UHGV virus genome: UHGV-1579991 | Source of the DNA: a virus | DNA length: 64,000 nucleotides | Strand: one strand, 5' to 3' | In this document: positions 27,780 through 59,610 of the stretch, piece by piece | Numbering within the stretch: position 1 is the stretch's first letter | How the letters are laid out: each line of letters starts with the position of its first letter | Notes under the pieces: generated by a model | The model's input: only the letters and a program-made list of their open reading frames with translations | What the model was told of the DNA's origin: nothing | Databases searched by the model: none | Made by a program: the position numbers and the translations under genes

Positions 27780-27876
27780 ATTTGCAAATGCAAGCTGTTT
27801 CACAACTGTTTGCATTTGCATTTGCATTGTTTAACACACTAAAATATGATTCATCTAATCAAAAACCAGAGAATTG

Positions 27877-27949
27877 TCGAGAATGTGCGATTTGAACGCC
27901 AATTATACGTCCCAAACGTATCGTGTTACCGGATTACACTACATTCTCG
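27877..27949 (-). tRNA. tRNA-Pro (anticodon UGG)
   Basis: Minus strand: acceptor CGAGAAT/ATTCTCG, anticodon stem ATACG/CGTAT loop TTTGGGA, T-loop TTCAAAT with a weak 3-bp T-stem. Confidence 0.6.
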
Positions 27950-27956
27950 TTAATTG

Positions 27957-28027
27957 TTGAACTGTCTGGACTCGAACCAGAAATATATCATCCAAAGTGA
28001 TATGTGTTACCATTACACCACAGCTCA
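27957..28027 (-). tRNA. tRNA-Gln (anticodon UUG)
   Basis: Minus strand: acceptor TGAGCTG/CAGTTCA (one G-U), D-arm GTG-TAATGGTAA-CAC, anticodon stem TATCA/TGATA loop CTTTGGA, T-arm TCTGG-TTCGAGT-CCAGA. Confidence 0.7.
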
Positions 28028-28132
28028 GTATATAATGTATGCTTGTGTTATTATGTATATTTGTTAGTAATTATATGAATAATATACTACATTTATTTAT
28101 GATTTGCACCATATACTGCAACTTTGTATCAC

Positions 28133-30415: not shown

Positions 30416-30710
30416 AATCTGTCAATATAAAACATCTAACAAGTTTTGAAACAAGTCGTCTATGACCCGTCTCAACTCGTATCATATGCTTGGTGAATAG
30501 TGGACCTGCTGCTGTAACACAATGTCTGTCAAGGGCATTTAGTACTTTGTTCATTGCAATCAATGGGTGCAAATGACTATTCGGCCAGCATTCTTCTGCA
30601 ATGTCTGTCAGAATGTCATCACCATATGACACAACTGAACATTTGTCTGCAATAAGATGCTTCTTAGCAATCTCTGCAACTTTTTGTGTAGAACAACGCA
30701 TAACAATCAA
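30390..30710 (-). CDS. hypothetical protein
   Basis: 106 aa ORF overlapping both neighbours by a few nt. Confidence 0.4.
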   Translation of the reverse strand: MIVMRCSTQKVAEIAKKHLIADKCSVVSYGDDILTDIAEECWPNSHLHPLIAMNKVLNALDRHCVTAAGPLFTKHMIRVETGHRRLVSKLVRCFILTDYENLHQIQ

Positions 30711-32803
30711 TCATCTGCAGCGTCACCATCGAAGCCCATGAGCACTTTGCGTACATGCGCATTGCCGCCGAGCCATGCATTGATTGCATCCCATGAGTCT
30801 TCTTTAGCGACTACTTGTTCGAGTACAGGTGCAGACATAATGTCTTCAAACTCTGTAGAAGTCAATGATGCAAGACCCTTCTTATGATTAACTTCCCAAT
30901 CTTTGCTGCCATTGAATTTGTCTGCGACTTTATTGTAGTCATCATAGAAGTAGAACTTTCGTTCTTCACCAGTTTTGCGATTGTTGCAGATGATGATTGG
31001 CGTGACTACATTATACACAAGACCCATGTCAAACAACTCAGGCCAGAACTTGTAGAAGAACAGCTGCAGCAATGATGAAATGCTGTAGCCATCAACATCT
31101 GCATCAGTCAAAATGCAAATCTTGCCATAGCGTAATTTGCGTGGGTCTGCTTTTTCATTGAATCGCAAACCAAGTGACTGCATCAAACCTGCAATTTCAG
31201 GCTTTTCTATGAGTTTCTTTGGATTGTCATAGTAGCAATTGCCAATTGACTTACCACGAATACAGTAGAAGCCTTGGGTCAATGCATTTCGATTGACTCG
31301 AATACCTTGTGATGCAGAATCACCTTCTACAATGAACAACATGCATTCATTACGATTTGTCTTTTGTGCAGCATCTACAAGCTTATTGACATGAAACTGC
31401 TTTGTCTTGACTTCAAGTTTCTTATTGAGCTCCTTGGCTTCTTTGGCTTTCTCTTTCTCTTCTTCAATCTGTTTCTTGATTTTGCAGTCCATCAAGATGC
31501 GGTCAAGAATTTCAGTTTTTGTCAAGTACTTCTTGAGCTTATCTGAAATGAGAATTGGGAAGCCGAACTTTTGCGTCTTTGTAGCCAATTTGTCTTTGAC
31601 CTGCGCATCGAATTCAGGATTAGGAATTTTCCACATTGACAAGATTGACATGTGCTTGAACACGTCTTTCTTTGCGGGTTCAAATCCATATTTGTTTTTG
31701 ATGTGGTCAATCAAAAAGTCTGCGCATACATTCGCGATGAAGTCCATATGCGTGCCATAGTCACATCGAATTGAATTGACTATTGCAAAGCTTTCAAAGA
31801 AGCCTGCTCTACTTGGGCCAATCTCGAAACTATAGTTCTCGTTTTCATCACCACGAAATTCTTTGGTGTGTTCCCACAAGTCTTTGTACTCCCAAAAGTG
31901 CTTGAACTTGAATTCATAGTTTTCGCCAGTAGCTTCATTGTGCCATTCAACTACAAGTGGATTGTTTACATCGCAGCCCATAACTGCGACTTCGATTGCT
32001 CGTGACAGCCACTTGTCTACAGTGTCATCTGGAATGTGGTCAAGCGGAGCTGCGTTAATCCACTCCCATCTGCCAAGGTCAAGATGAGCTTCGATGTATG
32101 TAAAATGTTCAGACTTACGGCATTTGCTGACTTTTGCCTCATCATGTCGCCCCATGTTGTCATACCAGCAAATTTCAAGTTTTTTGCCATCTTTTGCTGT
32201 AATGACTTTGAATGACTTAGACATCACATTGACAAGTGACGCGCCAAGACCATTTGTGCCAGACAATGCGCCGCGGTCAGCAACAAAATTTGAACCAGAC
32301 CTCAATGAGCCAAATACCATCTGCGGTATGTACTCATTGTACTCTGGATGCATCACTACAGGAATGCCACCGTTGTCCCATACTGCAAGCTTGCCTGTTT
32401 TTGGGTTGACTGTGACTGATATGCGATTGACGATGCTACTGTCATGTCGTTGTATGCTACGTTCATGTTCATCAAATGAGTTTGAAATTAACTCATTAAA
32501 CATAGTATTCAATGCAAGTGATTGATATGTTGTATAAACACGTCGAATTGGTCTTTCAGCGTCCTCATATGGACGATACAGCTCACATTCTTGTTCTGCA
32601 AGAAATTCAAGCGACCCTATGTACATACCAGGCTTCAGTAGACAATGTTCGCGCGTTGAAAGTTTTTTGAACTTTTCTGTCAGATTGTTTATGTCAGACA
32701 TGTCTGTAAATTGAGATGTTTGTATATGTATATTGTACAACAAGAATGCAAAACTTGCACTGAAAATATACACATTTTCACATAGCTGCAAGCATAATGC
32801 CAA
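30707..32803 (-). CDS. DNA topoisomerase II, ATPase/TOPRIM subunit (GyrB/gp39-like)
   Basis: 698 aa; GHKL-ATPase-like N-terminal half and TOPRIM signature (MLFIVEGDSASQ), then GRxxxxGK-type lysine-rich region. Confidence 0.8.
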   Translation of the reverse strand: MALCLQLCENVYIFSASFAFLLYNIHIQTSQFTDMSDINNLTEKFKKLSTREHCLLKPGMYIGSLEFLAEQECELYRPYEDAERPIRRVYTTYQSLALNTMFNELISNSFDEHERSIQRHDSSIVNRISVTVNPKTGKLAVWDNGGIPVVMHPEYNEYIPQMVFGSLRSGSNFVADRGALSGTNGLGASLVNVMSKSFKVITAKDGKKLEICWYDNMGRHDEAKVSKCRKSEHFTYIEAHLDLGRWEWINAAPLDHIPDDTVDKWLSRAIEVAVMGCDVNNPLVVEWHNEATGENYEFKFKHFWEYKDLWEHTKEFRGDENENYSFEIGPSRAGFFESFAIVNSIRCDYGTHMDFIANVCADFLIDHIKNKYGFEPAKKDVFKHMSILSMWKIPNPEFDAQVKDKLATKTQKFGFPILISDKLKKYLTKTEILDRILMDCKIKKQIEEEKEKAKEAKELNKKLEVKTKQFHVNKLVDAAQKTNRNECMLFIVEGDSASQGIRVNRNALTQGFYCIRGKSIGNCYYDNPKKLIEKPEIAGLMQSLGLRFNEKADPRKLRYGKICILTDADVDGYSISSLLQLFFYKFWPELFDMGLVYNVVTPIIICNNRKTGEERKFYFYDDYNKVADKFNGSKDWEVNHKKGLASLTSTEFEDIMSAPVLEQVVAKEDSWDAINAWLGGNAHVRKVLMGFDGDAADD

Positions 32804-34899: not shown

Positions 34900-35154
34900 C
34901 TAAAATGTTAACTGTAATGACTTGATATTGACGCATTCAATTTTTAACATGACAAGCTTATCATGTGCAGCCATTGCGTCATATTTGATGTTTGCAATTT
35001 CGAGCTTTTGTGCAATTTTGTATGCAGTGGCGCCATCAGTAGATATGCAGATGCAATTGCCAATGACAATATTTGCTGCATCTGTTATATTAACTTTGCA
35101 TGCATTATCATTGTTATCAATGACTTCTATGCATTTGATTGAGTTAAAGTCCAT
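34900..35154 (-). CDS. hypothetical protein
   Basis: 84 aa ORF; its start lies directly downstream of the promoter cassette at 35161-35230. Confidence 0.4.
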   Translation of the reverse strand: MDFNSIKCIEVIDNNDNACKVNITDAANIVIGNCICISTDGATAYKIAQKLEIANIKYDAMAAHDKLVMLKIECVNIKSLQLTF

Positions 35155-35160
35155 ATTGCA

Positions 35161-35230
35161 GAGGTTTAGTATATTTGACAGTATATTATTTATAGATATA
35201 TAATACTACATACTTGCAGATTTTGCACTT
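35161..35230 (-). promoter_or_regulatory. putative late-type promoter cassette (TATAAATA box on the minus strand)
   Basis: Minus-strand read GTGCAAAATCTGCAAGTATGTAGTATTATATATCTATAAATAATATAC...; shares the core attatttatagatatataatactac...attttgcac with 51127-51200; sits 10-70 nt upstream of the 34900..35154 start. Confidence 0.45.
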
Positions 35231-39339: not shown

Positions 39340-39452
39340 ATATCAACTATTTTGATTGTCAATCAATTGATTTGTTTGTTATATGTATGCAACAATGCAA
39401 AATGAACCTGCAAATTTCTTCGCAGGTTCATTTTTGTATGCATCATGCAGCA

Positions 39453-42400
39453 TCAATTACATGCTGAATGTCCGCAGTTGGTGCATCGAACACAGCCGTC
39501 AAACTTGACCATGTCACCACCGCATTCAGGACACTTTGCATACATCTTTGAGCCATCTTGAATGTGTAGTTTCAATGCGCGACCAATTGCTTTGCAGAAT
39601 GTGCCAACAGATGCAAAGCTTTTTGCAGTTTGGTCGACAATTTCACCAAGGTCGATGCCATTGCGAAGCATCGTTGAGTACAGTCGAGTAATTGTTTGCT
39701 GCTCATCTGAACCAAGACGTTCTGAGATATTGTCATAGTGTTGCAAGAATGACAAATTATCACCAAGCTTGTAGTGCTTCTTATCAGTCTTTGTGATTGT
39801 CGTTTGTTCAATGCCTTGCAACTTGTCAAATTCGTCTTTGTCAAGTTCAAATGCAAAGATTTCATAGGGTCGACCATCATCACAACCTACAAGAATACAC
39901 CACTTACGCTTATACACTGATACACAATACACTGCAGCAGGCAATACAGGTTTTCGTTTTGAGCGATGACCAGACTGCAAGACATGCGACTTATCCTTAG
40001 ACTGCTTATCATCTTTTACGAGAACACCTGCACGTGAGCCATCTCGATAAATTGTGCAACCCTTGCAGCCAGATTTCCATGCAGTCAGATAAATTTCACG
40101 AACAAGCTCTTTTGTTGCAGAGTTTGGAATATTGACTGTTACAGAAATTGATGAGTCAATGTACTTTTGCAACGCGCCTTGCAGTTTAACCTTGCCAATC
40201 CAGTCAACATCTTCAGTAGTTGCCTTATAGTATGGTGATTGAACAAGCAATTCATCAATGACTGCTTGCGAAGCATTTGACAACCAAGCTTTGATACGAG
40301 ACATTTCTGCTTCTGACCATTCAATGCCAGTATCTTTGACAAGGGTGAATTTGTCATCACCAAGCTGCACTCGTTTGCAAATCCACTGCATCAATGGGTA
40401 GTGAACTACAGCGTATTCAATGAACTTGTCACCAGTAGTCTCATCAATGAAGTTGATGTCTGCTTCATTATCAACTGCAGTAGGCTTTCGACGACGTTTG
40501 TGCAGTGGCATAAAAACAGGTTCAATGCCAGAAGTTGTCTGAGTCATCAAAGCTGTGGTGCCAGTTGGCGCAATTGTTGTTGTGTTGATGTTTCGACGAC
40601 CAAATTGTTGATAAGTTGTGATGTGCTCATCATCAATCAGTTCAGATAACATACGCTGAATGAACTTTGACTGCACATCTGTGTCATAGTCGAATATTGC
40701 AAATGAGCCACGAATCTCTGCCAAGTCAATTGACGCTTCATAAGTCGCCTTTACAAGCCATTGTTGCATAGTGACTGCGAAGTCAATTGACTCTTGTGAA
40801 CCATAGCGCAAGCCAAGCATTGCCATTGCATCGCCAAGTGCAAGAAAGCCCATGCCATATCGACGAGTATTTGTCAATTTGTCATAGACTTTATGCCACA
40901 AGTCAAGCTCAGTTTTCTTAATGTCAAATGATTCTTTGTCTGATTCAACCTTTGCAATGATTCGTTGAACTGCTTCAATTTCAAGCTGCACAAGGTCATC
41001 CATGATGACTGCACAGTCATATGTATCTTTGTAGAATGCTTCAAAGTCAAATGATGCATCAGCAGTCCAAGGATTAAGCACATATGCAGTCAAATTGCGA
41101 TGTGATAAAATGCAGCTTGCATATGCTGCAAGAGGCTGTTCACCGCACTGCCTGTTGTTTACAAATACTTGCATATGTCTGTCATTTGTATCATTGACAG
41201 CGTCAAATGACCCTACAAAAAAGTTGTGATAATCATCTACAGTGCCATTATACACATCTTCTACACCATCAAGTTCAACAGTGTGTACCCTATGATTGTA
41301 GTAATCTGCAAACTGCTTAAACTTTCTGTATGACGCATGAATAGCAGCGTCAACATTGTTAGATTTGCATTCATTTGCAAATTCTTCATAATTTGGTCGT
41401 TTGCCAAGTTTTTGCTTTGCTGCAGTATATACAAGCACTTGTTCTTTAGACCATTTTGCTTGCTGAGCTGCGTGGCCGCATTCGGCAGAACAATATGCAA
41501 CTTCTCTATAAAACCAGTGCGCCCAAAATTCAGAGCCGCAATGTTCGCAAATACGTTTAACATACACTTGTTTGTCAACAAATTTAGTGTCATAGCCCAT
41601 ATTGCGAACTTTAATTGCTGTTGCTATGCATCTGCTATCAATGCCAACTAAATCAGGATATTTAACATTAGCGCGCGTTGCACAATGACTTAAAAATGCA
41701 TCAATAGAGCCAAATGTTTCTACTAATTTATTGTACCTGTAGCCAGACCATGCAACAGTATTATTGCCTGGCGCATAGCGCATATAGTATTCTAATTCTT
41801 TGCGACTAAGGCCTCTTCCAACTTTTGCAGTGCATTGCGTAACATAGTCTACAATTGATTGCACAGTTGTATCAATATCATATCTGCCATTACGTTCACC
41901 AGAAGTAGATGCACTCATTTTAGCAGAATACTGTGCAAAACGTTCTGCATTTGCTTTAATTTTGTATATTGGATTGTTAGTGCCTCTACGTTCAAGTGCA
42001 TGTAATGCATCATGCTCTTTTTTGCTTAGTACTTGTAAGTTATTTGGGTCATTGTTTAATGAATTGCCATCGATATGATGCACTACTGTGTGTGTAGCAT
42101 CAAACTGTTCAGCATGACAGTATTCTGCTATTAAACGATGCTCAAACTTATATACACCATTATTCAACACTGCATAATATGGTGCAGATTTGCTATTTGT
42201 TTGATAGCTAAGCACTTCATCAAATGAACATTGTTGTCTTGCAATAATTGCTAAGCTATCACCATGCTGTAATTGTCGTGCTTCTTTGTATGTGCCATCT
42301 GTTAACTTAAACTTGTGATTACCTGTGCAACGAATAACATCACCAGAATCAAGTGTAACTTTGTATATTTGCACATTTGAGCCTGTTTTGCGTGGATGCC

Positions 42401-43439
42401 GCATTTTGCGTACAACTACATTATTGTTGTCATCATAGCAATACACATTAACATCATCGCCAATATCTGCAAGTTCACGTATTGTCATTGTTTGTCTGCC
42501 ATCAGCAAGCATAACTTTAGTGCTGCCAACAATGCATGGATTTGTTGAGCGCTCTTCATACATTTTACCGTATGCTTTCGAGTTCGACTCTTCCATAATG
42601 CGGTCCCAAAAGAACACGCCGGGTTCTGCAGATGCCCATACATTGTCAACAATTTTGTCAAATAATGCTTTTGCATCTGATGTCTTATGCAGCTCTTGGC
42701 CATCAGAGCCACGCCAAATATGTTCAAACTGCTGTTCTGCAAGCACTGCACGCATAAATGCATCAGTAAGCTTGATGGAAATGTTTGCACCTGTGATTTT
42801 TGTCAAGTCTTTTTTTGCGTCAATGAACTTATCTGCATCAGGATGCTCAATTGACAATGACAACATCAATGCGCCACGCCTGCCATTTTGTGCAACTTCT
42901 TTTGTCGATGTTGAAAAGCGTTCCATAAATGACACGACACCAGACGTCGTAATAGCACTGTTATGTACTTCTACGCCTTCTGGGCGAATATGCGACAAAT
43001 CATGGCCAACACCACCACGACGTTTCATCAACTGAACTTGCTCTTCATCTGTTTTGAAGATGCCGCCATATGAATCTGCATCATTGCCTATTACATAGCA
43101 ATTTGACATTGATGTGTAACCGCCAAGACCGATACCAGCCATTGGAGAACCACCAAGTACAAATCGCTTAAATGGCTCAAGCAAATATGCAAGTCGCTCT
43201 TTTGACAATACACGTTTGCCTGTCTGTTCTTCAAATTGTGATTCTATACGGTCAAATTCATTGACCCAGCGCTCATGCATATCAGACAATGAGTGTTCAT
43301 ACAAATTGTCTTTGTCATGATGCAAGTATTTTGACATGCATATGTCAGCAGCCATTGAGTCGCCCGTAAATTCATGCGTCAGTGTAGTGTGCACTTCAGC
43401 ATATTCAGGCGACCCAATTTGAATGGGACGTTTTGTCAT
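39453..43439 (-). CDS. nrdJ: ribonucleotide reductase, class II (NrdJ)-like, intein-containing precursor
   Basis: Track ORF 39453..43499; likely start at ATG 43439 (MTKRPIQIG). Exteins reconstitute the RNR active-site motif NP-CGEQPL...AYASC; C-terminal Cys-rich zinc-ribbon-like tail. Class assignment is tentative. Confidence 0.7.
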   Translation of the reverse strand: MTKRPIQIGSPEYAEVHTTLTHEFTGDSMAADICMSKYLHHDKDNLYEHSLSDMHERWVNEFDRIESQFEEQTGKRVLSKERLAYLLEPFKRFVLGGSPMAGIGLGGYTSMSNCYVIGNDADSYGGIFKTDEEQVQLMKRRGGVGHDLSHIRPEGVEVHNSAITTSGVVSFMERFSTSTKEVAQNGRRGALMLSLSIEHPDADKFIDAKKDLTKITGANISIKLTDAFMRAVLAEQQFEHIWRGSDGQELHKTSDAKALFDKIVDNVWASAEPGVFFWDRIMEESNSKAYGKMYEERSTNPCIVGSTKVMLADGRQTMTIRELADIGDDVNVYCYDDNNNVVVRKMRHPRKTGSNVQIYKVTLDSGDVIRCTGNHKFKLTDGTYKEARQLQHGDSLAIIARQQCSFDEVLSYQTNSKSAPYYAVLNNGVYKFEHRLIAEYCHAEQFDATHTVVHHIDGNSLNNDPNNLQVLSKKEHDALHALERRGTNNPIYKIKANAERFAQYSAKMSASTSGERNGRYDIDTTVQSIVDYVTQCTAKVGRGLSRKELEYYMRYAPGNNTVAWSGYRYNKLVETFGSIDAFLSHCATRANVKYPDLVGIDSRCIATAIKVRNMGYDTKFVDKQVYVKRICEHCGSEFWAHWFYREVAYCSAECGHAAQQAKWSKEQVLVYTAAKQKLGKRPNYEEFANECKSNNVDAAIHASYRKFKQFADYYNHRVHTVELDGVEDVYNGTVDDYHNFFVGSFDAVNDTNDRHMQVFVNNRQCGEQPLAAYASCILSHRNLTAYVLNPWTADASFDFEAFYKDTYDCAVIMDDLVQLEIEAVQRIIAKVESDKESFDIKKTELDLWHKVYDKLTNTRRYGMGFLALGDAMAMLGLRYGSQESIDFAVTMQQWLVKATYEASIDLAEIRGSFAIFDYDTDVQSKFIQRMLSELIDDEHITTYQQFGRRNINTTTIAPTGTTALMTQTTSGIEPVFMPLHKRRRKPTAVDNEADINFIDETTGDKFIEYAVVHYPLMQWICKRVQLGDDKFTLVKDTGIEWSEAEMSRIKAWLSNASQAVIDELLVQSPYYKATTEDVDWIGKVKLQGALQKYIDSSISVTVNIPNSATKELVREIYLTAWKSGCKGCTIYRDGSRAGVLVKDDKQSKDKSHVLQSGHRSKRKPVLPAAVYCVSVYKRKWCILVGCDDGRPYEIFAFELDKDEFDKLQGIEQTTITKTDKKHYKLGDNLSFLQHYDNISERLGSDEQQTITRLYSTMLRNGIDLGEIVDQTAKSFASVGTFCKAIGRALKLHIQDGSKMYAKCPECGGDMVKFDGCVRCTNCGHSACN
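41148..42536 (-). mobile_element. intein (Hint domain plus HNH homing-endonuclease domain) inside the RNR gene
   Basis: In-frame 463-aa insertion from Cys at 42536 (CIVGSTKVMLADG) to ...VFVNNRQ at 41148, followed by the +1 Cys of CGEQPL. Contains HNH motif HHIDGNSLNNDPNNLQVLSKKEHDALH and intein block-F-like VYNGTVDDYHNFFVG. Confidence 0.75.
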
Positions 43440-43504
43440 TGTAACAGTGCATTTAAGTGTTTTAACAGTTTTATGTATAAATTGTACAACAATGGGCAAA
43501 ATTT

Positions 43505-43558
43505 TGCATCAACTCAAAACAGCCAAGCAATTCATTGCTTGGCTGTTTTGAGTTGATG
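43505..43558. terminator. 54-bp palindrome (26-bp arms); putative terminator or operator immediately upstream of the RNR gene
   Basis: gcatcaactcaaaacagccaagcaat / attgcttggctgttttgagttgatgc are exact reverse complements, separated by 2 nt; between the stop of 43565..43870 and the RNR start. Confidence 0.5.
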
Positions 43559-43886: not shown

Positions 43887-44348
43887 TTATTGTGCTTTTG
43901 CTTGTGCAGTGTAATAAGTGATTGCATCAATGTAAGGTAGTTCTTTAGACATTAGCCAATCAATGCCAAATACTGTATCTTGGCGAAATCTTCGTTGTGC
44001 AATCATTTGAACTTCGATTGGCATATCTACGTCCTTGCCAAATCTGATTGTATTTGCAAGTTCTGTGATTGCATATCTGAGAATTTTATCGGTACTCATT
44101 GTTAAGGTGCTTTCCGGCAATTGCCAATAACGTTCTTGGAATGCTCGATTTGCTGAGTAAGTCCAAAGTTCAAGTCTTGCATTTCTGCAATCATATGAAA
44201 CAATCAGACTTAATCCTTTTGTCCAGCAATGTGCTATCTTAATGATTGGCTTGTCATCATTGATAGATGACATTGCTTGCAGTTTTTCGAAATCTTTAAC
44301 ATATCTGTTATCATTCGAAAGCTGTTCCATTATTTCACCGTAAGTCAT
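43887..44348 (-). CDS. hypothetical protein (start at MTYGEIMEQ)
   Basis: Track ORF 43887..44426 begins inside the upstream motif region; ATG at 44348 is preceded by the leader AACCTCTACTACA, identical to the leader of 50253..51125. Confidence 0.45.
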   Translation of the reverse strand: MTYGEIMEQLSNDNRYVKDFEKLQAMSSINDDKPIIKIAHCWTKGLSLIVSYDCRNARLELWTYSANRAFQERYWQLPESTLTMSTDKILRYAITELANTIRFGKDVDMPIEVQMIAQRRFRQDTVFGIDWLMSKELPYIDAITYYTAQAKAQ

Positions 44349-44540
44349 TGTAGTAGAGGTTAAAATATATTGATATATAATAATTATACTACAAAGTTGC
44401 CAGATTTGCACCAGAATGTATAACAAGTTTGCATAAAAAAGTTTTTACATAAAATGGCAAACAAAAAACAAGCAGACTGCAATTGCAGCCTGCTTGCGCC
44501 AAAACAGAAAAAGATGATAACTTAACCCAAAAACCTAACT

Positions 44541-46890: not shown

Positions 46891-47050
46891 AGGGATGGCG
46901 AACTGTACACATTGTACACATTGTACACACTTATATTGTATGTGTTTGTATATGTATTTTAACAGGCATTAGCAAACAATACAAAAATGCAAAATGAAAG
47001 TGGCTCAGATGTATATCTGGGCCACTTTCATTTGTCATATACGTTGTCTA

Positions 47051-48706
47051 TTATGCAAGCAATGTTTGCAGCATGTAGCAGCCTTTTGCATATGCGACAA
47101 TTGCTTTTGCAGGGTTGTTCTTGATGTATGCAGGCAACTTGAGCCAAATCAATGCCACAAGCACTTTCTGTCGCAGCGTCAAATCAAGTTCATCAATGTT
47201 GTAGCCAATGACTTTTGCTCTGACGTCGCCATCAACATAATCGAATTGCTGATATGCTGACTGATTGAATACATCATAGCCAGACAAACCATATGCAAAC
47301 TTTGCAATGTCATAATCGATGTCACCTGTCATCTTAACGTCACCAAAGTAGCCTCTGGGGTCAATGAACATGCATTTTGATGAATCTGCACTGAACATTG
47401 TATTTGACGTATTCGGGTCACCATGAATGAATGACCAATTTTCGCATGCATAGTCAATTGAATCTTCTTGTGACAAGAAGAATCTTAACTTGCTCATCAG
47501 TTCATCGAATGGCATCAATGCAATACCATTGAATGATTCGATGCCTGCTACAAGTGACTTGACTTCAGCATATCTTGCAATAGTAGTCTCAATGTACTCT
47601 TTGCGCATTGCGTCAATCATTTGCTGTCTGCTAACTGGCCAAATCTCGTCATTGTCAAGATTGCTTGCATGCAATTCATTGATTGACTGCTTGAATGTCG
47701 TCATGCAGCCACGTGCAATTGTAGCATATCTACGCTCAATATCAACTTTGTTGAGGAACTGATGTACAGTCACTCCGTTAATTTTCGACATTTTGATGAA
47801 GTCTTCACCAGTTTCAAATATCGATGGAATGACTGTCGATTCTGCATTCATAGCATGACGATACCATTCTTGTTCTTTCTGAATGAGTGCCAAACCACGA
47901 GCATTTGTAGCAGATTTCGTAACAATATCGCCATCAATGCTAATGCTATTGAAATACCGTACTTCATTATCACGTGCAGCCTTGACTGCTTCACTGACAA
48001 ATGCTCCGCGTTCGCCATATGAATGACAGCCAGCAATTTCATATCTGTCTACAAATGTAACGTTGGTCATTAAATCAGCAAAATCAGCATTGTTATCATT
48101 ATGCTGCATATCAATGACATTGTTATGAAACGCTGCAGGTACATAATATGCGCCAACAATGCCACTATGATATGTAGACTCATACAAATGGTCGAGCACA
48201 TATGCTTCTGCATCTGCATAAGACCCTACTTTGTAGAATGCATCAGTAGGAATGAGATGCAGTCTGCAATCAATGTCATTTGACGTGCAGCAAGTTATGC
48301 AGCCAGTTTTGAATTTGTCAAGTGGCAATTTAATGTCACCAAGCCATACGTCAGACCAGTGATAGAATACATTGCAGCCACCAATGTTGTTAGCAACATA
48401 CAGTGCTACATCTGCGCATGCTTTTGCTGAGCCATCAGCTTTGTCATGCACAATAGTTGACAATTTGATATCTGGTGCAAATGCTGCAGCATGTTCATGA
48501 ATCATTGCTGCATGAGTGTCATTTGCACATGCAACAATGACTTCATCAAACTGTCGAGCATAGGATGTCAAAATTTTTGCGAGCACGGTTTGTTTGCCCG
48601 CATTTACAAGAGTTTTAGGGATGTAATTGTTGCCAGTCATTGTTGACATGCGAGTGCCCAAACCACATGCAATGATTGCTAACACATTTGGATATTGATG
48701 AGACAT
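47051..48706 (-). CDS. bifunctional sugar-1-phosphate nucleotidyltransferase / kinase (APH or choline-kinase-like) fusion
   Basis: Start placed at internal Met (MSHQYPNVLAIIACGLGTRM). N-terminal NTP-transferase G-x-G-T-R motif; C-terminal kinase Brenner motif FIHGDPNTSN and FIDPRG. Confidence 0.6.
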   Translation of the reverse strand: MSHQYPNVLAIIACGLGTRMSTMTGNNYIPKTLVNAGKQTVLAKILTSYARQFDEVIVACANDTHAAMIHEHAAAFAPDIKLSTIVHDKADGSAKACADVALYVANNIGGCNVFYHWSDVWLGDIKLPLDKFKTGCITCCTSNDIDCRLHLIPTDAFYKVGSYADAEAYVLDHLYESTYHSGIVGAYYVPAAFHNNVIDMQHNDNNADFADLMTNVTFVDRYEIAGCHSYGERGAFVSEAVKAARDNEVRYFNSISIDGDIVTKSATNARGLALIQKEQEWYRHAMNAESTVIPSIFETGEDFIKMSKINGVTVHQFLNKVDIERRYATIARGCMTTFKQSINELHASNLDNDEIWPVSRQQMIDAMRKEYIETTIARYAEVKSLVAGIESFNGIALMPFDELMSKLRFFLSQEDSIDYACENWSFIHGDPNTSNTMFSADSSKCMFIDPRGYFGDVKMTGDIDYDIAKFAYGLSGYDVFNQSAYQQFDYVDGDVRAKVIGYNIDELDLTLRQKVLVALIWLKLPAYIKNNPAKAIVAYAKGCYMLQTLLA

Positions 48707-48749
48707 TGTGTAGTGTTGTTTATATGAGAATATTGTACAATATGCATTG

Positions 48750-49007
48750 CTATTTTGCAAGATGACAATGCTTACGCCATACTGCAATTTCAACATCTGT
48801 AGCAAAATCAAAGTGCAAGCCATGCAATTGTTTCATGCCATATTGACGTCTTGCAATATACTTATTGCCAACTCGCTCAACAACGGAACCAATTTCTACT
48901 ACATTTTTAGAATGTCGTGGCTCATGTAATGGCACTCTGAATATGTATCTGCCATCTAATGTTGACATTATGTCACCATTATCAATTATGCCTGTTTGCC
49001 TGCTCAT
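48750..49007 (-). CDS. hypothetical protein
   Basis: 85 aa ORF. Confidence 0.35.
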   Translation of the reverse strand: MSRQTGIIDNGDIMSTLDGRYIFRVPLHEPRHSKNVVEIGSVVERVGNKYIARRQYGMKQLHGLHFDFATDVEIAVWRKHCHLAK

Positions 49008-50252: not shown

Positions 50253-51125
50253 TCAAGCTTGACTACTTTTGTTGATTACGAGATACTTGTATCGTTCTTT
50301 GATTGTGATGTTCTTTGATTTTGCCGCCTCGATTTCTTTGCGTTCCTTGGAGGAATAGTTGAACTTAATGTAGTCGGAGAACAATTCGGGCTTATCTGCT
50401 ACTTCATTGTTCTTGACTTCTTTTACAAGAGTTTGCTGAAACTCATTGATTGTAGTGAAACCAAGGAATGACTGGAACTTGTTAAGCGGAAACAGCTTAT
50501 CTGTGTTGTCCTCGAATGTCGGGAATTCGTCGGAATACGTAATTTCGATTTGGTCTACGAAATATCTAAGTTTTTCCCAAGGTTCCTTGCCAATGAGGAG
50601 AATGTTCTGATGGTCAAGTTTTTCCTCGAACATTTCCAGGAGACATTCGTATGATTTTACGAGACGAACTCCAGGATATGTAATTGATGCAATTGAACGA
50701 GGTTTGTGAGTCGTCTTGACTTCTTTATTGTATGTTTCCTCGTCGATGCAATAGATGTATCGCTTGACCTTGTCGTATTCTTTCGGAAGATAGTTGTTGT
50801 CAAGGAATTGCTTGTCAACTACAATGAAACTGAAAGGATAGAGTTCATTGAATCGTTGACGAAGCTGTTCTGTTGCAAGGAAGAAATGCGAGCCATCTTT
50901 TGCTGCAAATTCCATATTTGAATTGCATCCTGCATATGCAATGTATCTGTTTCGCTTCCATTTGAGGAATCGACTTACCAGGTTCTTTTCGAAGATGTCC
51001 TTGTATTTGAAGTAGGTGTCCCAGTACTCCTTAACAATTCCATCTTGCATTTTTCTTGACAATTTTGAATTGTCTACCGGCCTATCAGTAAAAACTGATG
51101 GTTTGTTTGCGTTGTATAATCCCAT
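50253..51125 (-). CDS. hypothetical protein (compositionally distinct)
   Basis: 290 aa ORF; codon usage looks richer in G/C-ending codons than its neighbours (judged by eye); preceded by the promoter cassette and the leader AACCTCTACTACA-ATG. Confidence 0.5.
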   Translation of the reverse strand: MGLYNANKPSVFTDRPVDNSKLSRKMQDGIVKEYWDTYFKYKDIFEKNLVSRFLKWKRNRYIAYAGCNSNMEFAAKDGSHFFLATEQLRQRFNELYPFSFIVVDKQFLDNNYLPKEYDKVKRYIYCIDEETYNKEVKTTHKPRSIASITYPGVRLVKSYECLLEMFEEKLDHQNILLIGKEPWEKLRYFVDQIEITYSDEFPTFEDNTDKLFPLNKFQSFLGFTTINEFQQTLVKEVKNNEVADKPELFSDYIKFNYSSKERKEIEAAKSKNITIKERYKYLVINKSSQA

Positions 51126-51126
51126 T

Positions 51127-51200
51127 GTAGTAGAGGTTTGTTAATTTATTATTTATAGATATATAATACTACGACAATGCAAATTTTGCACTGTCGTAGC
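51127..51200 (-). promoter_or_regulatory. putative late-type promoter cassette (TATAAATA box on the minus strand), duplicate of 35161-35230
   Basis: Minus-strand read GTGCAAAATTTGCATTGTCGTAGTATTATATATCTATAAATAATAAATTAACAAACCTCTACTACA-ATG; shares the core attatttatagatatataatactac with 35183-35208. Confidence 0.5.
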
Positions 51201-51220
51201 ATAAAAGTTTACACATTTTT

Positions 51221-51559: not shown

Positions 51560-51578
51560 TTATTTAAGTTTTGTGTTA

Positions 51579-52565
51579 TTATACTACAGCAGACAATTGT
51601 TGCAATGTTGACTGCATAACGTCATCAGTTACAAATAATTCGTTTTCAGTGAACACATAAAATTTTAAGCCATGTTGTTTTGCATATTGCACTGCTGCAG
51701 TAGATTTTTTACGTACTGCATCACAAAATGCATATGCACATGGCTTAATTTCTATTAGCAATCCATATGTAGGCAAATAGAAATCTACAATGTATTTATG
51801 ATGCCCATTGTATGGCACTGCAACAGTTTCATATTCATATTGAATGCCAAGACGTTCTAATGTCAATACAAAATGAGTTTCATAACTACTGCGTGTATGC
51901 AATTGCGTTGGCATTGCAATAGAATGACATTTTACACACTGCTGAACAAGTACTAATGCGCGTTTGCCCTTACCACAGTTTTGCATTTTGCCATTTTGCA
52001 TTGCTCGTGCAACACCTGCAGCAACGTGCATAGCAAATGATGGGTCTTCTTTATATTTTCGTCGTAACCCTGCAGATACACGAGACTTAAAGTCTGGGTC
52101 TTCTGCATAGCGTCTGTTCAAACCAGCAGTTACTCGTTGGCTAAATGTCGGGTCATTCACTACAGCAACCATTGCTTTTCGCGTGCCAATTGACACATTT
52201 TTACATCGAGTTTCATCTCGCCATACTTTAGACATAGATGCTGTCCAGCGTTTAACATATTCAGGGTCATCAAACGCATGTTTTGCGCGACAGCATTTAC
52301 AAACATTATTAAAGTAGCCATATCTAATGCCTATGTATGCTATAGCAGCCCCACAATATTTGCAATGTTTTGCTGCGTCATCATACAATAGATATTTGTC
52401 ATAGTAGTCTTGTTCATGCATATTAACAGATTGTAATGCTCTGCGTATTGTGCATGATGTACACCATTTGTTAAGCTCTGGTACATAATACTCATAACGT
52501 TGCTGCCCCTTTGGTGTTATTCGTGCAAGTCTTTTATATTCCGGATGATATGTAGGATTTTTCAT
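51579..52565 (-). CDS. homing-endonuclease-like paralog (divergent N-terminus)
   Basis: 328 aa; C-terminal nuclease-like domain (YIVDFYLPTYGLLIEIKP) as in the other paralogs; N-terminal Cys-rich region with repeated DPxFKxRVxAGLxRxY motifs. Confidence 0.45.
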   Translation of the reverse strand: MKNPTYHPEYKRLARITPKGQQRYEYYVPELNKWCTSCTIRRALQSVNMHEQDYYDKYLLYDDAAKHCKYCGAAIAYIGIRYGYFNNVCKCCRAKHAFDDPEYVKRWTASMSKVWRDETRCKNVSIGTRKAMVAVVNDPTFSQRVTAGLNRRYAEDPDFKSRVSAGLRRKYKEDPSFAMHVAAGVARAMQNGKMQNCGKGKRALVLVQQCVKCHSIAMPTQLHTRSSYETHFVLTLERLGIQYEYETVAVPYNGHHKYIVDFYLPTYGLLIEIKPCAYAFCDAVRKKSTAAVQYAKQHGLKFYVFTENELFVTDDVMQSTLQQLSAVV

Positions 52566-55154: not shown

Positions 55155-57104
55155 TTAGTCATTTGCTTTAGTTGCTTGCATCAGTTCAGCAAAGCTTACA
55201 GTGTAAGCGTCTTCGCCAACGGTCACGTATGCAGCATTGACATTTGAGTCATTGCCTGTGTATGTAACCAAGGTGCCTGCAGGAATTTCCACACCGTCAA
55301 TGGTTCGCATCGAATTGACAAGCTTGTATGTCTTGTTATCTTCGAAGTTCTCATTGACATATGCAGCAGCAATCATTGTTGAACGCTTACGAGATTCATT
55401 GATGAAACTTGCGCCAACAAGTTCTGACAACTTCTTCTTTGTTACAGCAGAGCATTTGTCATATGCAATGTCAATTGCGAGGTCTACATCACCAAGTTCC
55501 TTTGCAATGAGTTCATCAATCTGAGACAGCTTCTTGTCATCTTTGACAGCGACAAAATTCATTGCAAACTTGCGAGCGTTGTCTGACAATGATTCATCAA
55601 TGTTCCACTGTTTCATCAATGTCTGCTTCAGTACCTTGTCAAGTTCCGACCAGTCCTTATCTGCAAGAGTAGTTGCATCAAAGTCTTCATTGCTGAACTG
55701 CTTCAGCACTTTGACTTTGTCATCATGTGACAATGCAGCCCACTTGTTTGCAGCCTCTTCAGCAGATTCAAGCAAAGGCTTGATTGCATCTTTGAGTTCT
55801 TGCGGCCAAGTTTCAGGCGCTTTGAGCAGCATCTCAGATGAGTTGTACTCAAGCATGTCAGTCATGATTGCAAGCTTAACATTGTTAGCTTTCTCCTCGG
55901 GTGACAGAGCTTTGAACTTTTCAGCCCAGTCTTCAGATTCAGTTACAATTGACACTGGTTTTGCAAAACCAGCAACAAAGACAAGCTTATACATGATATT
56001 CGTCATGAATGAGCAAACTGCATCAATGTCTGACTGTGTTGCTGCAGATTGAGCATCACGAATGTTGAGCAATGCCTGACGAAGAGACATAATGCCTACA
56101 ACAGGGTCAGACCATGTCAACACAACAGAGCTGTCAATTGTGATACCCTTGTCGAATCGCATATTTTCTGCAATACGGTCAGCAAGTTCAGGCAGTTCAG
56201 TGTAGTACTGCTCAAGTGCTGCATGTGTAGCAGGAATCGAAACTTTTGCAGCATCAAATGGGTTGTTGATGTGCATAACATGTGCAGTTTGAATTGACTG
56301 CATCAGCATCGACACTACTGCAGATTCTATTGCAACATCATCTGCAGCAGCTTCATCAAGATTTGCAAGTTTTAGCAATGTCTTTTTGTCTGCATCTGAC
56401 AATCGCAGCCAAATGTATTCCCATTGACTGTTTGCATCATAGCCACGGTCAGTAGCAAACTTGGTGAGTTCTGCAGATTTCTTTGCTGCGTCATCGTCAT
56501 CAAGCCAATCCAAGAATGCTTTCAGTTTGTCGTCAAATGCTTCATTAACAAATGACGCCATTGCATTTTGCAGCAAATATTGATGGTCTCGTACTGGCGA
56601 CTCAACAATTTCAAAGCCTTCAAGAGACTTTGGCGAGTCAGTTGCTGAACCAGCTTCAAGACACTTCTTTGATGCATTGTCAATGACAAACCACATCTTT
56701 TGTGCTTTGAGTGCAATGTAAGTCTTGTCTTTTGATTGCTGAACAGTCATGTTGTCAAGAGCCAATGCACTGATTGGCAAATTCTTGACTGCTGACTTGT
56801 CAAGTGCTTCATTGACTGCTACATTGTCATCACTCATTAACTGAGTATTTGCAGCAAATGTTGCAGAATCAATGTTAAGCTCTTTGCCATCAGGCATAGA
56901 GAACTTAACTGCATCTGCAACATCAAGCACTTGTACCATGGTACCTGCTTCGACTTTGTCATCACCAACAGCGAACTCAGTTACAACCTGATATGCCTTG
57001 TTAGCTTCAACAGTTTCAACAGACTCCATAATGAACTTTGCTGTACTGCAAGAGATTTTGTGCTTTTTCATGTTCATGTATGAATTTGAGTGTTTGTTGT
57101 TCAT
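55155..57104 (-). CDS. hypothetical acidic protein (649 aa)
   Basis: Long minus-strand ORF rich in Asp/Glu/Ala; no catalytic motif recognised; possibly structural or scaffold. Confidence 0.5.
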   Translation of the reverse strand: MNNKHSNSYMNMKKHKISCSTAKFIMESVETVEANKAYQVVTEFAVGDDKVEAGTMVQVLDVADAVKFSMPDGKELNIDSATFAANTQLMSDDNVAVNEALDKSAVKNLPISALALDNMTVQQSKDKTYIALKAQKMWFVIDNASKKCLEAGSATDSPKSLEGFEIVESPVRDHQYLLQNAMASFVNEAFDDKLKAFLDWLDDDDAAKKSAELTKFATDRGYDANSQWEYIWLRLSDADKKTLLKLANLDEAAADDVAIESAVVSMLMQSIQTAHVMHINNPFDAAKVSIPATHAALEQYYTELPELADRIAENMRFDKGITIDSSVVLTWSDPVVGIMSLRQALLNIRDAQSAATQSDIDAVCSFMTNIMYKLVFVAGFAKPVSIVTESEDWAEKFKALSPEEKANNVKLAIMTDMLEYNSSEMLLKAPETWPQELKDAIKPLLESAEEAANKWAALSHDDKVKVLKQFSNEDFDATTLADKDWSELDKVLKQTLMKQWNIDESLSDNARKFAMNFVAVKDDKKLSQIDELIAKELGDVDLAIDIAYDKCSAVTKKKLSELVGASFINESRKRSTMIAAAYVNENFEDNKTYKLVNSMRTIDGVEIPAGTLVTYTGNDSNVNAAYVTVGEDAYTVSFAELMQATKAND

Positions 57105-57354
57105 ATGATATGATATATATCAAGTGCAGCAATTGAACAGATTGCAAAAACAATGCTCAGACTTTACAGTCTGAGCATTGAACGACTAAATTGTACATCT
57201 TCCACAATGATATAGAATCATTGTTAATATTGTATTGATATTGTACAACATGCATTGCATATTTGCAATGATACAACATGCAAAATGCACTTGCACTTTG
57301 ATGCAAAGTACTGCGTACACAACATGCATTGCATATTTGCATTTTGACGCAATG

Positions 57355-58425
57355 TCATTGTTGTTTATGCCAGCCATATGATGCCTGACCAGCATCATAC
57401 ACTTCTACAAAACCATGGTCGTACATAAAATCTTCATTACGAGTGCCCTTGCCACCATTAGTGCCAAGAATACGGTCTGCACCATGCATAAGTAGCATGT
57501 TATTTGTGACATGTTGCTTTGTCAGCATATTGAACCAGTGTTTGCTATATGACAAACCAAGACCATCAAAGCCCAGCTTTGTGTACACACCACCGTCAAA
57601 CTTGCTTAAATCACAATATGATAACACAGATTCAGGGTCATATGTCTTGATAAAGTGCTTAAAGATTCGTTCAGCACCACCAACAACTTTGGTTGCTGCA
57701 CAAAGACGTAGCAATTCATATTGATAGCGCTTATTGTATCGTGGACGACCAAATGTCATAAGTTGATGAATGACATAACCACCAAGCAACTCAAGTGGAT
57801 GACCTTCAATCAACGCAAGATTGATAAAATTGCCTGAGCACTTGCCTTGCAAATGATGTTCAATCAAAAATTGATTTGCAGTATACTTGTCAATTTCAAC
57901 AACTTTAAGCTTGCGAGCATATACAATCTTTGATTTGTCTACGATTTGATGCTTGATGTGATTGATAACTTTCTTGGCGTCATCCCAATCCCACACATGA
58001 ATACAATGAAAGCCTGCAGCTTTTGCAATGTCTGTTTTCTTTGCATGAACATCACAAGGCAAATGTGCATCTTTTGCATCATGCATAAACAAGTGCTCAA
58101 ATGAATGCGTACTGTTATGCGAAAATGCAGGATTGATGTTAATGACAATATTGTCATGTCGAAAATCGAAGACTTCATCACCAATGACAAAGTTGCGCTC
58201 AAAATCTATACCGACATGTTTGAGCAACACTTGATGCCACACGTCTTTATAGGCTGATTCAAGCTTGCTTAGCTCATCACAGTTTGCAATGTTTTTGTAA
58301 CGTTGAATAGCAGCATCAAAGTCAAGATTGACTTCAGCGTAGTCTGCATTTTTATCATAGTGAAATTTTGAGCTCATGCGTATAATTTTGTGTATATAAT
58401 TATTGTACAACATGCAAATGCACAT
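57355..58425 (-). CDS. homing-endonuclease-like paralog (nuclease-like domain N-terminal)
   Basis: 356 aa; N-terminal IVININPAFSHN...GFHCIHVWDWDD nuclease-like domain and C-terminal FVEVYDAGQ tail homologous to the family VYDCGH motif. Confidence 0.5.
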   Translation of the reverse strand: MCICMLYNNYIHKIIRMSSKFHYDKNADYAEVNLDFDAAIQRYKNIANCDELSKLESAYKDVWHQVLLKHVGIDFERNFVIGDEVFDFRHDNIVININPAFSHNSTHSFEHLFMHDAKDAHLPCDVHAKKTDIAKAAGFHCIHVWDWDDAKKVINHIKHQIVDKSKIVYARKLKVVEIDKYTANQFLIEHHLQGKCSGNFINLALIEGHPLELLGGYVIHQLMTFGRPRYNKRYQYELLRLCAATKVVGGAERIFKHFIKTYDPESVLSYCDLSKFDGGVYTKLGFDGLGLSYSKHWFNMLTKQHVTNNMLLMHGADRILGTNGGKGTRNEDFMYDHGFVEVYDAGQASYGWHKQQ

Positions 58426-58468
58426 TGCATTTGATACAACATACAGTATAAGTTTGCTTTTGACAGAC

Positions 58469-59530
58469 TTATTTTGTATTGCTACGCGTCATTGTTAAAT
58501 GACCGCAATCATACACATCAACTTCTGTTTTGCCAAGCATACATGTATGACAATTTATTTTGAAATCTGCTGCAGTGTAATCAGGATAGTTTAGCGGAGA
58601 TTCTTTTGACAAATCAATTTCAATTGTGTCAGTAGTTTTAAGTTGTTCAGTGCCTGCAATGATATCTGCAATAAGATTGATAACTTCTTCTTGTGAATCC
58701 CAATCAAACACAGTTATGCAACGATAGCCTGCATCAAGTGCAAGTTTTGTTTTGTTGTAATGGTATTGAGCACCAATAACATTGTTGTCTTTTGCTCGAC
58801 CAGTTAAATATGCAAAACTAACAGTGCAGTTGTGCGTAACTGTTGGACAAATTTCTATAAGTAACTTTGCAGGCTCATACTGCAAATCATATGTTTGATT
58901 ATTGATGTTAAACTCGTACTGTGTATCAATTGCCAACTGTCGTAATAACGCATCATGCCACATCATATTACATTTAGAAATTGTTTTGGATGACAATCTG
59001 CATTGCGGCAATTGACATGGCCAATCTACGCCGTACATTTGTTGTGTTGTTTGACGCATTTTGTTAACATCACCAAAATGATTGCCATATCGATGCTCTT
59101 TGGTTTTAAGCGACTGCTCAATATTGACATTGCCTACACAACCATAACGTTCAAGTTTTGTTGCAGCAGTTTTGCTAACATCACCATGCCCATTGCCAAA
59201 TTTGGCGACTTTAGTTGCAAGTATTTTATGACTTGGGCCAAATGCATTGCCATACAATTCTTGTTTAGTCGCAAGCATTTTGTCGATATTACAACCAGCG
59301 CCATAAGTGTTATGCATAGTTTGCATACGTTGTCGAATAAATTTTGGCACAGATAAAGGACTTTCTACACCATATTTGCGTAAGCAACTGATTTTGCATG
59401 CGTACTTTTGCTTGATGACAGAATGTGCATTTCGACGTCCTATGTAAGTGTTTTCTGATGTAGCAGCAAGCTCTGCATCTCTAAGAACTTCAAGTGCAGC
59501 AATTCGTGCTTCAATTTCTTCAGATGTCAT
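58469..59530 (-). CDS. homing-endonuclease-like paralog
   Basis: 353 aa; coiled-coil N-terminus (EIEARIAALEVLRD), YG-x-x-x-G-D repeats, LIEICPTVTHN...GYRCITVFDWD nuclease-like domain, VYDCGH tail. Confidence 0.55.
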   Translation of the reverse strand: MTSEEIEARIAALEVLRDAELAATSENTYIGRRNAHSVIKQKYACKISCLRKYGVESPLSVPKFIRQRMQTMHNTYGAGCNIDKMLATKQELYGNAFGPSHKILATKVAKFGNGHGDVSKTAATKLERYGCVGNVNIEQSLKTKEHRYGNHFGDVNKMRQTTQQMYGVDWPCQLPQCRLSSKTISKCNMMWHDALLRQLAIDTQYEFNINNQTYDLQYEPAKLLIEICPTVTHNCTVSFAYLTGRAKDNNVIGAQYHYNKTKLALDAGYRCITVFDWDSQEEVINLIADIIAGTEQLKTTDTIEIDLSKESPLNYPDYTAADFKINCHTCMLGKTEVDVYDCGHLTMTRSNTK

Positions 59531-59610
59531 TTTTTATCATATTGATAATTGTACAACATGCAAATGGCGTTTGCATTTGATGCAACAATGACTTAGCTTG
59601 TACAGTTTGC

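Follow-up and report, generated by a model that had tools for sequence, protein, structure and literature searches.

The 64,000-nucleotide stretch of the UHGV virus genome UHGV-1579991 (hereafter, the window) contains a recurrent intergenic motif that, judged from sequence, is most likely a lineage-specific promoter class with a sigma-70-family architecture, in a phage whose presumed host phylum lacks that architecture. The motif is very likely to be a promoter; the chances that it is read by a phage-encoded sigma factor appear to be about even. On the minus (coding) strand, the putative promoter would consist of a -35-like box, (G/T)TGCAAA, a 16-bp spacer and an extended -10 box, GT(T/A)G-TAYAAT, with transcription predicted to start ∼7 nt past the -10 box and to produce short leaders of roughly 10-40 nt. 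The motif with its statistics, placement, orientation and conservation, the classes of genes that it precedes, the existence of a phage sigma gene and the misfit to the host consensus are direct observations. We infer the promoter activity, the start sites, the reading sigma factor and the timing of expression; the best reading of the copies is that they are early or middle promoters that depend on a phage sigma factor.

A two-box motif upstream of phage genes

The motif was described in an initial annotation of the window as TRTACWAC-N11-WTTTGCA, and its recurrence is genuine: with at most one mismatch, this pattern has 16 matches compared with 0.26 expected, a number that none of 100 dinucleotide shuffles reached, and all the copies lie within, or at the edge of, the non-coding 8.6% of the window. 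A 36-nt weight matrix built from 15 copies and applied with a threshold of ≥12 bits finds 17 sites on the minus strand and one on the plus strand, the latter being the mirror image of the palindromic site at 51165-51203. The leave-one-out scores of the copies are 14-38 bits, whereas first-order Markov random sequence yields 0.18 matches per window with a top score of 17 bits. According to the curated gene calls, 14 of the 17 copies are wholly non-coding and the other three overlap just the last 1-11 nt of the upstream open reading frame (ORF), a test that is slightly circular because, for four genes, the first ATG downstream of the motif was taken as the start.

The uniform polarity of the copies and their location 20-70 nt upstream of start codons, both proposed at the outset, are borne out by the 17:1 ratio of minus-strand to plus-strand matrix sites, which are co-oriented with the genes, and by the distance between the end of the -10 box and the ATG, which is 17-45 nt at 12 sites; of the remaining copies, one is located 53 nt before the first tRNA gene and the distal members of tandem pairs are further off. 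The originally reported coordinates are accurate to within ∼10-15 nt. The copy that had been flagged at 43470-43500 does exist, with the actual span of 43481-43508, and the original list of sites holds but is incomplete, with three copies (28081-28108, 35200-35227 and 51163-51190) and a shorter variant (51578-51605) having been missed.

The candidate promoter copies are the following (coordinates refer to the plus strand and run from where the -10 box ends to where the -35 box begins).

10082-10109, minus strand: copy TGCAAA-16-TATTAT then CTATATAAC; before a 147-aa gene (9614-10057)
14421-14448, minus strand: copy before the clamp-loader gene (13419-14393)
19506-19533, minus strand: weak variant AGCAAA-16-TATCAT, 12.8 bits; before a ∼1200-aa gene (15866-19465)
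23503-23530, minus strand: copy before the topoisomerase II medium subunit gene (22051-23472); in the related contig L002 the spacer has diverged and both boxes are kept
25721-25748, minus strand: proximal copy of a tandem pair upstream of a 239-aa gene (24918-25637)
25789-25816, minus strand: distal copy of the same pair, with the -35 box within the perfect palindrome GTGCAAATTTGCAC
28081-28108, minus strand: copy TGCAAA-16-TATATT; 53 nt upstream of the seven-tRNA cluster (26846-28027)
32732-32759, minus strand: copy TGCAAG-16-TACAAT then ATACATATACAAAC; before the topoisomerase II large subunit gene (30707-32701); identical in the related contigs L001 and L002
35200-35227, minus strand: copy with an exact CTATAAATA 5 nt downstream; before an 84-aa gene (34900-35154)
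43481-43508, minus strand: copy TGCAAA-16-TACAAT then TATACATAAAA; directly after a terminator hairpin and before the gene for the ribonucleotide reductase large subunit (39453-43439)
44383-44410, minus strand: copy TGCAAA-16-TATAAT; before a 153-aa gene (43887-44348) and 58 nt after a terminator that ends at 44468
48732-48759, minus strand: copy TTGCAA-17-TACAAT; before a 551-aa nucleotidyl-transferase-like gene (47051-48706)
51163-51190, minus strand: copy followed by an exact CTATAAATA; before a 290-aa gene (50253-51125); embedded in the palindrome 51165-51203
51578-51605, minus strand: probable variant with a spacer 1 bp shorter, TTGCAA-16-TATAAT after GTAG; 18 nt before the ATG at 51559
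57240-57267 and 57268-57295, minus strand: two back-to-back copies upstream of a 649-aa DUF5856 gene (55155-57104)
57316-57341, minus strand: degenerate third tandem copy beside the preceding pair
58402-58429, minus strand: copy TGCAAT-16-TACAAT; before an HNH/homing-endonuclease-like gene (57355-58377)
59548-59575, minus strand: copy before a 353-aa gene (58469-59530), 42 nt after a strong terminator (59617-59647); ATGCAAA-N5-TTTGCAT fills the spacer

The alignment of the copies in the coding orientation gives (a)(g)TGCAAA - 11 variable nt - TGT(T/A)GTAYAAT(A)(T). The distance between TGCAAA and TAYAAT is 16 bp at all 17 sites, which is the same as (G/T)TGCAA - 17 bp - TAYAAT. The -10 hexamers are TACAAT, TATAAT, TATTAT, TATCAT and, in one case, TATATT, with the first T, the A and the final T invariant at 17 of 17 sites; these are the T-12, A-11 and T-7 of the sigma-70 -10 hexamer, and G(T)(T/A)G is conserved directly 5' of the hexamer. 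The reverse complement of the motif as originally written thus has the canonical two-hexamer geometry of the sigma-70 family with a near-consensus -10 box, and therefore the remark in the initial annotation that no obvious sigma-70 -35/-10 pair could be discerned on the coding strand is wrong. A generic sigma-70 scan detects the TTGCAA variants of the motif but is too unspecific, with 83 matches in total versus 59 expected. An Rfam search gave no match at the motif sites, and in the literature we found no description of the motif or of the promoters of these phages.

Several additional sequence features were noticed at or near these sites. The long palindrome at 51165-51203, CTACGACAGTGCAAAATTTGCATTGTCGTAG, in which the motif scores on both strands, could be an operator or a bidirectional element. 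At 7310-7475 (minus strand), just upstream of an ORF that starts near 7372, there are two tandem ∼35-nt copies (ATCAAAACAATTTTATATTGTTTTGCATTTTGC...) with TTTTGCA repeats related to the -35 box, and between the tRNA genes at ∼27600-27700 (minus strand), TGCAAA arrays (ATGCAAATGCAAATGCAAAC ... GCTTGCATTTGCAAATGG) without an adjacent -10 box may bind a TGCAAA-recognizing factor. In several genes served by the motif, a leader, AACCTCTAC(T/A)ACA, directly precedes the ATG (51126-51142, 44349-44365 and 35155-35170 in the window, and near 8770 in L131); this leader resembles an anti-Shine-Dalgarno sequence rather than a Shine-Dalgarno site.

Gene classes served by the motif and a late-type box

The motif precedes the genes for ribonucleotide reductase, both topoisomerase II subunits, the clamp loader, the nucleotidyl-transferase-like, homing-endonuclease-like and DUF5856 proteins, the tRNA cluster and several small ORFs, and the 17-18 copies would drive the non-structural genes of the phage. 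It was not found before the capsid or terminase genes in the window, nor in a 10-kb stretch beyond the left side of the window that consists of large genes (L133). Instead, a lone TACATATAA-type box, TACATATA(A/C)(A/C)AA, is present before the terminase gene, the neighbors of the capsid gene, the 1068-aa and 531-aa genes, and the large genes beyond the left edge of the window. By analogy, this lone box is probably the counterpart of the T4 late promoter in this phage.

2223-2281, 21797-21810, 39378-39392, 62994-63008 and 46891-46960: lone box TACATATA(A/C)(A/C)AA

Between the terminase gene and a divergent 424-aa gene, the lone late-type box is palindromic (ATATGTACATATA).

Many copies of the motif also have, 5 nt downstream of TAYAAT, a TATA-rich box that resembles the lone box; it is an exact CTATAAATA at 35194 and 51157, and ATACATATAC, TATACATAAAA or CATATAAAC elsewhere, all TACATATA-like. 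With a late-type box (TACATATA- or TATAAATA-like) in this position, the same genes may also be served late. The initial proposal that the motif is a class distinct from the TATAAATA-type or TATA-type cassette is accordingly valid only in that the motif is a signal of its own; the two signals are not fully separate, with the late-type box found just downstream in many copies.

The phage, its host and its relatives

Almost all the genes in the window are on the minus strand. The recognizable ones include T4-type topoisomerase II large and medium subunits, clamp loader, NAD-dependent ligase, DHFR, polynucleotide kinase and dNMP kinase, along with the structural genes for a T4-type terminase and a gp23-type major capsid protein, and seven tRNA genes. 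A permuted tmRNA predicted by ARAGORN at 26412-26854 is probably a false positive (Rfam detects no tmRNA at the gathering threshold). An intein that bears an HNH endonuclease domain splits the gene for the large subunit of ribonucleotide reductase (39453-43439), an arrangement similar to that in PTm1.

The capsid protein is 26-37% identical to those of its nearest relatives, the Chryseobacterium phages MA9V-1 and MA9V-2, the 'Sphingomonas' phage PAU, the Tenacibaculum phages PTm1 and pT24, and the Prevotella Lak megaphages; the host of PAU, according to White and Suttle (2013) as cited in PMC10537231, is actually Sphingobacterium. The sequence thus indicates that the phage is a large, distant T4-like relative of the PAU, MA9V and Lak phages. 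Of 53 genes, just 2 have a Shine-Dalgarno-like 4-mer, and ahead of the start codons, G is underrepresented and A is enriched at -3. The scarcity of Shine-Dalgarno sites and A at -3 are hallmarks of Bacteroidetes (PMC6847099). Because of these features and because the capsid relatives are phages of Bacteroidota, the host is very probably a bacterium of this phylum. The habitat is presumably the gut. Metagenome contigs in ENA and Logan, the longest of 181 kb, encode exact copies of one of the window proteins, and a Megablast search of 10 kb against GenBank phages produced no match.

The motif is conserved among relatives of this phage. Contigs with 96-99% protein identity (IMG/VR 3300045988_152288 and _149023) hold the same sites, and at one orthologous site (L002), the spacer has been replaced with both boxes retained. 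A more distant relative, 3300030471 (59-74% protein identity), has CATTGCAAAT-N10-TGTAGTACAAT-(n)CACATATAA at four sites. The lineage consensus derived from 47 distinct instances is agTGCAAA...TGTtGTAcaAT, with information peaks only at TGCAAA and TGT.GTA.AAT. In an IMG/VR scan for the exact motif, the matches listed were mostly single chance occurrences in unrelated contigs, and multiple matrix sites were present, among these matches, only in contigs of the same lineage; matches such as L110 have Shine-Dalgarno sites and look like ordinary sigma-70 promoters of other phages.

Outside the lineage, PAU has an apparent equivalent, ACTGAAACTTT-N10-GTAGTAYWAT (that is, GAAACT-16-(GTAG)TAYWAT), with 16 coding-strand copies in 50 kb, located before non-structural genes; this motif was recognized in the present analysis and is not annotated in the PAU record. 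No separate GTAGTAYWAT class was found in the first 50 kb of either MA9V-2 or PTm1. In MA9V-2, there are at least eight copies of TTTTCAyATGTC...TTATATTT(G/A), which include the Bacteroidota TAnnTTTG element, with TTTC 19 bp upstream.

The strand bias, the intergenic location just before gene starts, often after terminators (strong intrinsic terminators lie directly upstream of several copies), and the retention of both boxes in relatives with diverged spacers all agree with the original view of the motif as a promoter-type phage signal. Repeats with a role in replication or recombination, targets of a homing endonuclease, or selfish elements could, in principle, produce a recurrent motif as well, and the partial palindromy (TTGTACAA, TGCAAATTTGCA) along with the proximity of several copies to the homing-endonuclease gene and the intein would fit such an origin. 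However, a strict 17:1 strand bias in co-orientation with the genes, fixed and short distances to the start codons, the location before functionally coherent non-structural genes with none in the structural modules, and the conservation of two boxes around a variable spacer make an explanation that does not involve transcription very improbable.

Misfit to the host promoter

The housekeeping sigma factor of Bacteroidota recognizes the TTTG and TAHHTTTG elements, in which T-12, A-11, T-8, T-7, T-6 and G-5 are nearly invariant, and promoters of the E. coli type are not expressed in this phylum (PMC6847099). Two ways to read the motif as such a promoter were considered and rejected: in the TAYAAT(A/T)(T/A) register, only T-12, A-11 and T-7 match, and in the register that ends at the conserved TG, only A-11, T-6 and G-5 do, that is, three of the six positions in each case. 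A -33 TTTG located 19-21 bp upstream of the -7 element is not conserved in the aligned motif sites. Searches of the window for the host-type elements themselves gave six matches to TTG-N19-TAnnTTTG compared with 1.95 expected, most of these inside genes and with no recurrent class upstream of genes, and no intergenic class of TAnnTTTG.

The copies could nevertheless be strong early promoters that are read by the unmodified housekeeping sigma of the host, in which case the extended consensus would reflect selection for strength. There is a clear precedent in T4, where sigma-70 reads the early promoters; the motif precedes genes of the early type, some copies hold a good host -7 element (nAnnTTTG) that ends 3 nt before TAYAAT, and in MA9V-2, the orthologous genes (topoisomerase II subunits and helicase) carry the true TATATTTG host element. 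Nevertheless, we regard this possibility as somewhat unlikely: the invariant positions of the motif (TGCAAA, GTA and AAT) are not those of the Bacteroidota consensus, with a match at three of six positions and no -33 TTTG at 19-21 bp; the -35 box is unlike that of PAU, yet the specificity of the host sigma is described as phylum-wide; and the genome has a distinct promoter of the host type elsewhere, at the gene of a phage sigma factor.

A candidate phage sigma factor and a predicted transcription cascade

Because the motif does not fit the Bacteroidota consensus and the lineage encodes its own sigma factor with regions 2 and 4, a phage sigma factor is the most likely reader of the motif. The gene for this 298-aa protein was located by a synteny walk in both near-identical contigs, ∼15.4 kb beyond the left edge of the window (L139:17334-18230, in a contig 96-99% identical to the window lineage). 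The protein contains the domains Sigma70_r2 and Sigma70_r4, with scores of 33.2 and 26.2 bits, respectively, each exceeding the Pfam cut-off, belongs to phrog_351, is 31% identical to PAU gp1, and aligns to regions 2 and 4 of SigA and RpoS. PAU gp1 itself is also annotated as a sigma factor, and MA9V-1 ORF23 has a Sigma70_r2 domain. A search of related loci with the PAU/MA9V sigma alignment retrieved PAU itself only, and another sigma homolog, P0014, was set aside as it comes from an unrelated T4-like phage with 26% GC that lacks the motif. More generally, sigma factors, some of these close to RpoD, are reported to be encoded by group 2 jumbo phages including PTm1 and Lak (PMC7824862).

Region 2.3-2.4 of the sigma factor is alike in the window lineage (KFSTYAYPWIKKYV) and in PAU (KFSTYAYAWIKKYI), whereas the recognition helix of region 4.2 differs (STSGIHTIIRRA and SKPTISRDIARA, respectively). 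The similarity of region 2.3-2.4 runs in parallel with the shared -10 box, and the difference in the 4.2 helix with the different -35 boxes; this parallel, drawn from two lineages only, is suggestive of recognition of the two boxes by the respective regions of the sigma factor.

The sigma gene has a promoter of a different kind, which is conserved in the window lineage, PAU and MA9V-1, three lineages with capsid proteins only ∼37% identical. This promoter, TTT(C/A)CA..TGT.A.AAA...TGATTA(A/T)ATTTATATAAC, that is, TTTC-N19-TAAATTTA, matches the Bacteroidota -33/-7 type as well as the host-like type of MA9V-2, and in the window lineage (∼105 kb), it was seen only at the sigma gene.

L139:17230-17333, L140:16020-16116, the PAU genome end/start and L010:1400-1524: predicted sigma-gene promoter, TTTC-N19-TAAATTTA-TATAAC

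The presence of this different, host-type promoter at the sigma gene suggests a cascade, in which the host sigma would direct the expression of the sigma gene, the phage sigma that of the TGCAAA/TAYAAT class, and the TACATATAA class would serve the late genes. The TGCAAA/TAYAAT promoters would then be read by the host core RNA polymerase with the phage sigma bound, with region 2 on TAYAAT and region 4 on TGCAAA. Taken as a whole, the interpretation of the motif as a phage-specific promoter class of non-structural genes, read by a phage sigma on the host core polymerase within a cascade, has, in our estimate, an even chance of being correct.

Several observations weigh against this interpretation. 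The sigma gene is outside the window, having been located in near-identical contigs by synteny; its neighbors there are large genes that are presumably structural, and the promoter in front of it has a late-like TATATAAC box at its end. Furthermore, PAU gp1 (L011:94-1182) is annotated as 'internal capsid vertex protein (mango) subunit 2', a virion component. The phage sigma could instead be a late sigma factor, a functional counterpart of T4 gp55. A different register reveals an almost perfect host -7 element in a few copies of the motif (GATTTTTG at 10109 and 25748, CAACTTTG at 44410 and TAAATTTG in L131). The weight matrix was made from the very sites that it scores, a circularity that is lessened but not removed by the leave-one-out procedure and the independent pattern test. 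Finally, 6-7 of the 17 copies contain an inverted repeat, TGCAAA(0-6)TTTGCA, of which the TGCAAA box forms one half; such symmetry would fit a dimeric regulator better than region 4 of a sigma factor.

The last of these observations leads to a distinct explanation, namely, that TGCAAA is the site of a phage DNA-binding regulator, such as an activator that, like T4 MotA, takes part in sigma appropriation, or a repressor or operator protein that binds as a dimer; the sigma factor would then read TAYAAT only. By chance, such inverted repeats are expected at ∼0.004 per site, as estimated from the base composition; TGCAAA arrays also occur away from -10 boxes, between the tRNA genes and at 7310-7475, and the location of the box near the -30 to -35 region resembles that of the MotA box. 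However, most copies lack the second half-site or have it in degenerate form, whereas the first half does not vary and always stands 16 bp from TAYAAT, the spacing and the sequence are unlike those of the MotA box, and a PHROGs scan of 64 proteins encoded in the window revealed none similar to MotA or AsiA. Moreover, the -10 box is not of the host type, so that a non-host sigma would be needed anyway. A regulator as the reader of TGCAAA appears unlikely.

The annotation of PAU gp1 as an internal capsid protein also makes it possible that the sigma factor is injected, that is, packaged in the capsid and delivered with the DNA, in which case the TGCAAA/TAYAAT sites would be immediate-early promoters, recognized by the host core polymerase together with the injected sigma and wholly independent of the unusual housekeeping sigma of the host. 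We consider this variant of the phage-sigma scenario quite unlikely. A takeover via an injected sigma factor has, to our knowledge, been described for no phage, and if it does occur here, the lineage would provide a ready-made orthogonal sigma/promoter pair for Bacteroidota.

Comparison with known systems

We know of no work on the organization of transcription in the T4-like or jumbo phages of Bacteroidota (PAU, MA9V, PTm1 and the Lak relatives), a phylum with a type of promoter that sets it apart from other bacteria. The present analysis provides a defined promoter consensus with a candidate cognate phage sigma for a lineage of gut phages, and a testable map of three transcription classes (host-type, TGCAAA/TAYAAT and TACATATAA-type). 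If the link between the sigma factor and the promoter holds, the pair could be developed into an orthogonal switch of expression for Bacteroides and related genera, and would improve the annotation of gene starts and operons in such phage genomes.

Compared with the classical sigma-70 promoter (TTGACA - 17 bp - TATAAT), the motif has the same arrangement of two hexamers 16-17 bp apart, upstream of and co-oriented with the genes; its -35 box, TTGCAA or GTGCAA, shares TTG..A, and its -10 box keeps T-12, A-11 and T-7. The differences are the TGCAAA core of the -35 box, G(T)(T/A)G in place of the TGn extended -10 element, the TATA-rich box around the expected start, and a presumed host phylum that lacks this type of promoter. 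The housekeeping promoter of Bacteroidota (TTTG at -33 and TAHHTTTG at -7) is the type of the presumed host phylum and is present in the phage lineage at the sigma gene, but the motif matches only three of the six nearly invariant -7 positions and has no -33 TTTG at the right distance.

In the middle promoters of T4, a spacing of 11-13 bp separates the MotA box, (a/t)(a/t)(a/t)TGCTT(t/c)A, from a -10 box of the host type. Like these promoters, the motif belongs to a T4-like phage, serves genes of nucleotide metabolism and replication, and has an upstream box in place of the host -35 element; unlike in T4, the box is TGCAAA at 16 bp rather than TGCTTyA at 11-13 bp, and the -10 box is not of the host type. 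As for the T4 late promoters (TATAAATA, recognized by gp55), a similar TATAAATA-like late box exists in the window phage, but it is of the type TACATATA(A/C) and is often fused to the motif, 5 nt downstream. The motif itself was considered as a T4-type late promoter, a single TATAAATA-like box without a -35 element, and rejected: it has two conserved upstream boxes, and an exact TATAAATA occurs only as an extra box, at 35194 and 51157.

The geometry is identical to that of the PAU motif, which consists of a 6-mer, a 16-bp spacer and GTAG-TAYWAT, with an (A)CAT.TATA box downstream. The PAU copies are on the coding strand and precede non-structural genes, many of them within a terminator hairpin or just past one, and PAU encodes the orthologous sigma factor. 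The upstream boxes differ, GAAACT in PAU versus TGCAAA here, and the region 4.2 helix of the sigma factor differs accordingly.

With respect to the proposed mode of regulation, a counterpart is the phage-sigma cascade of the Bacillus phage SPO1, in which the middle promoters are read by gp28. In both cases, there is a phage-encoded protein of the sigma-70 family, a promoter consensus unlike that of the host in front of replication-type genes, and a sigma gene behind a host-type promoter. The present phage differs in being T4-like, in having a Bacteroidota host and another consensus, and in that the link between the sigma factor and the promoters is a predicted one and the sigma factor may be a virion component, as annotated for PAU gp1. 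The TGCAAA/TAYAAT class thus belongs among the phage-specific promoters and sigma cascades that are already known, with a consensus variant that is new but does not constitute a new category.

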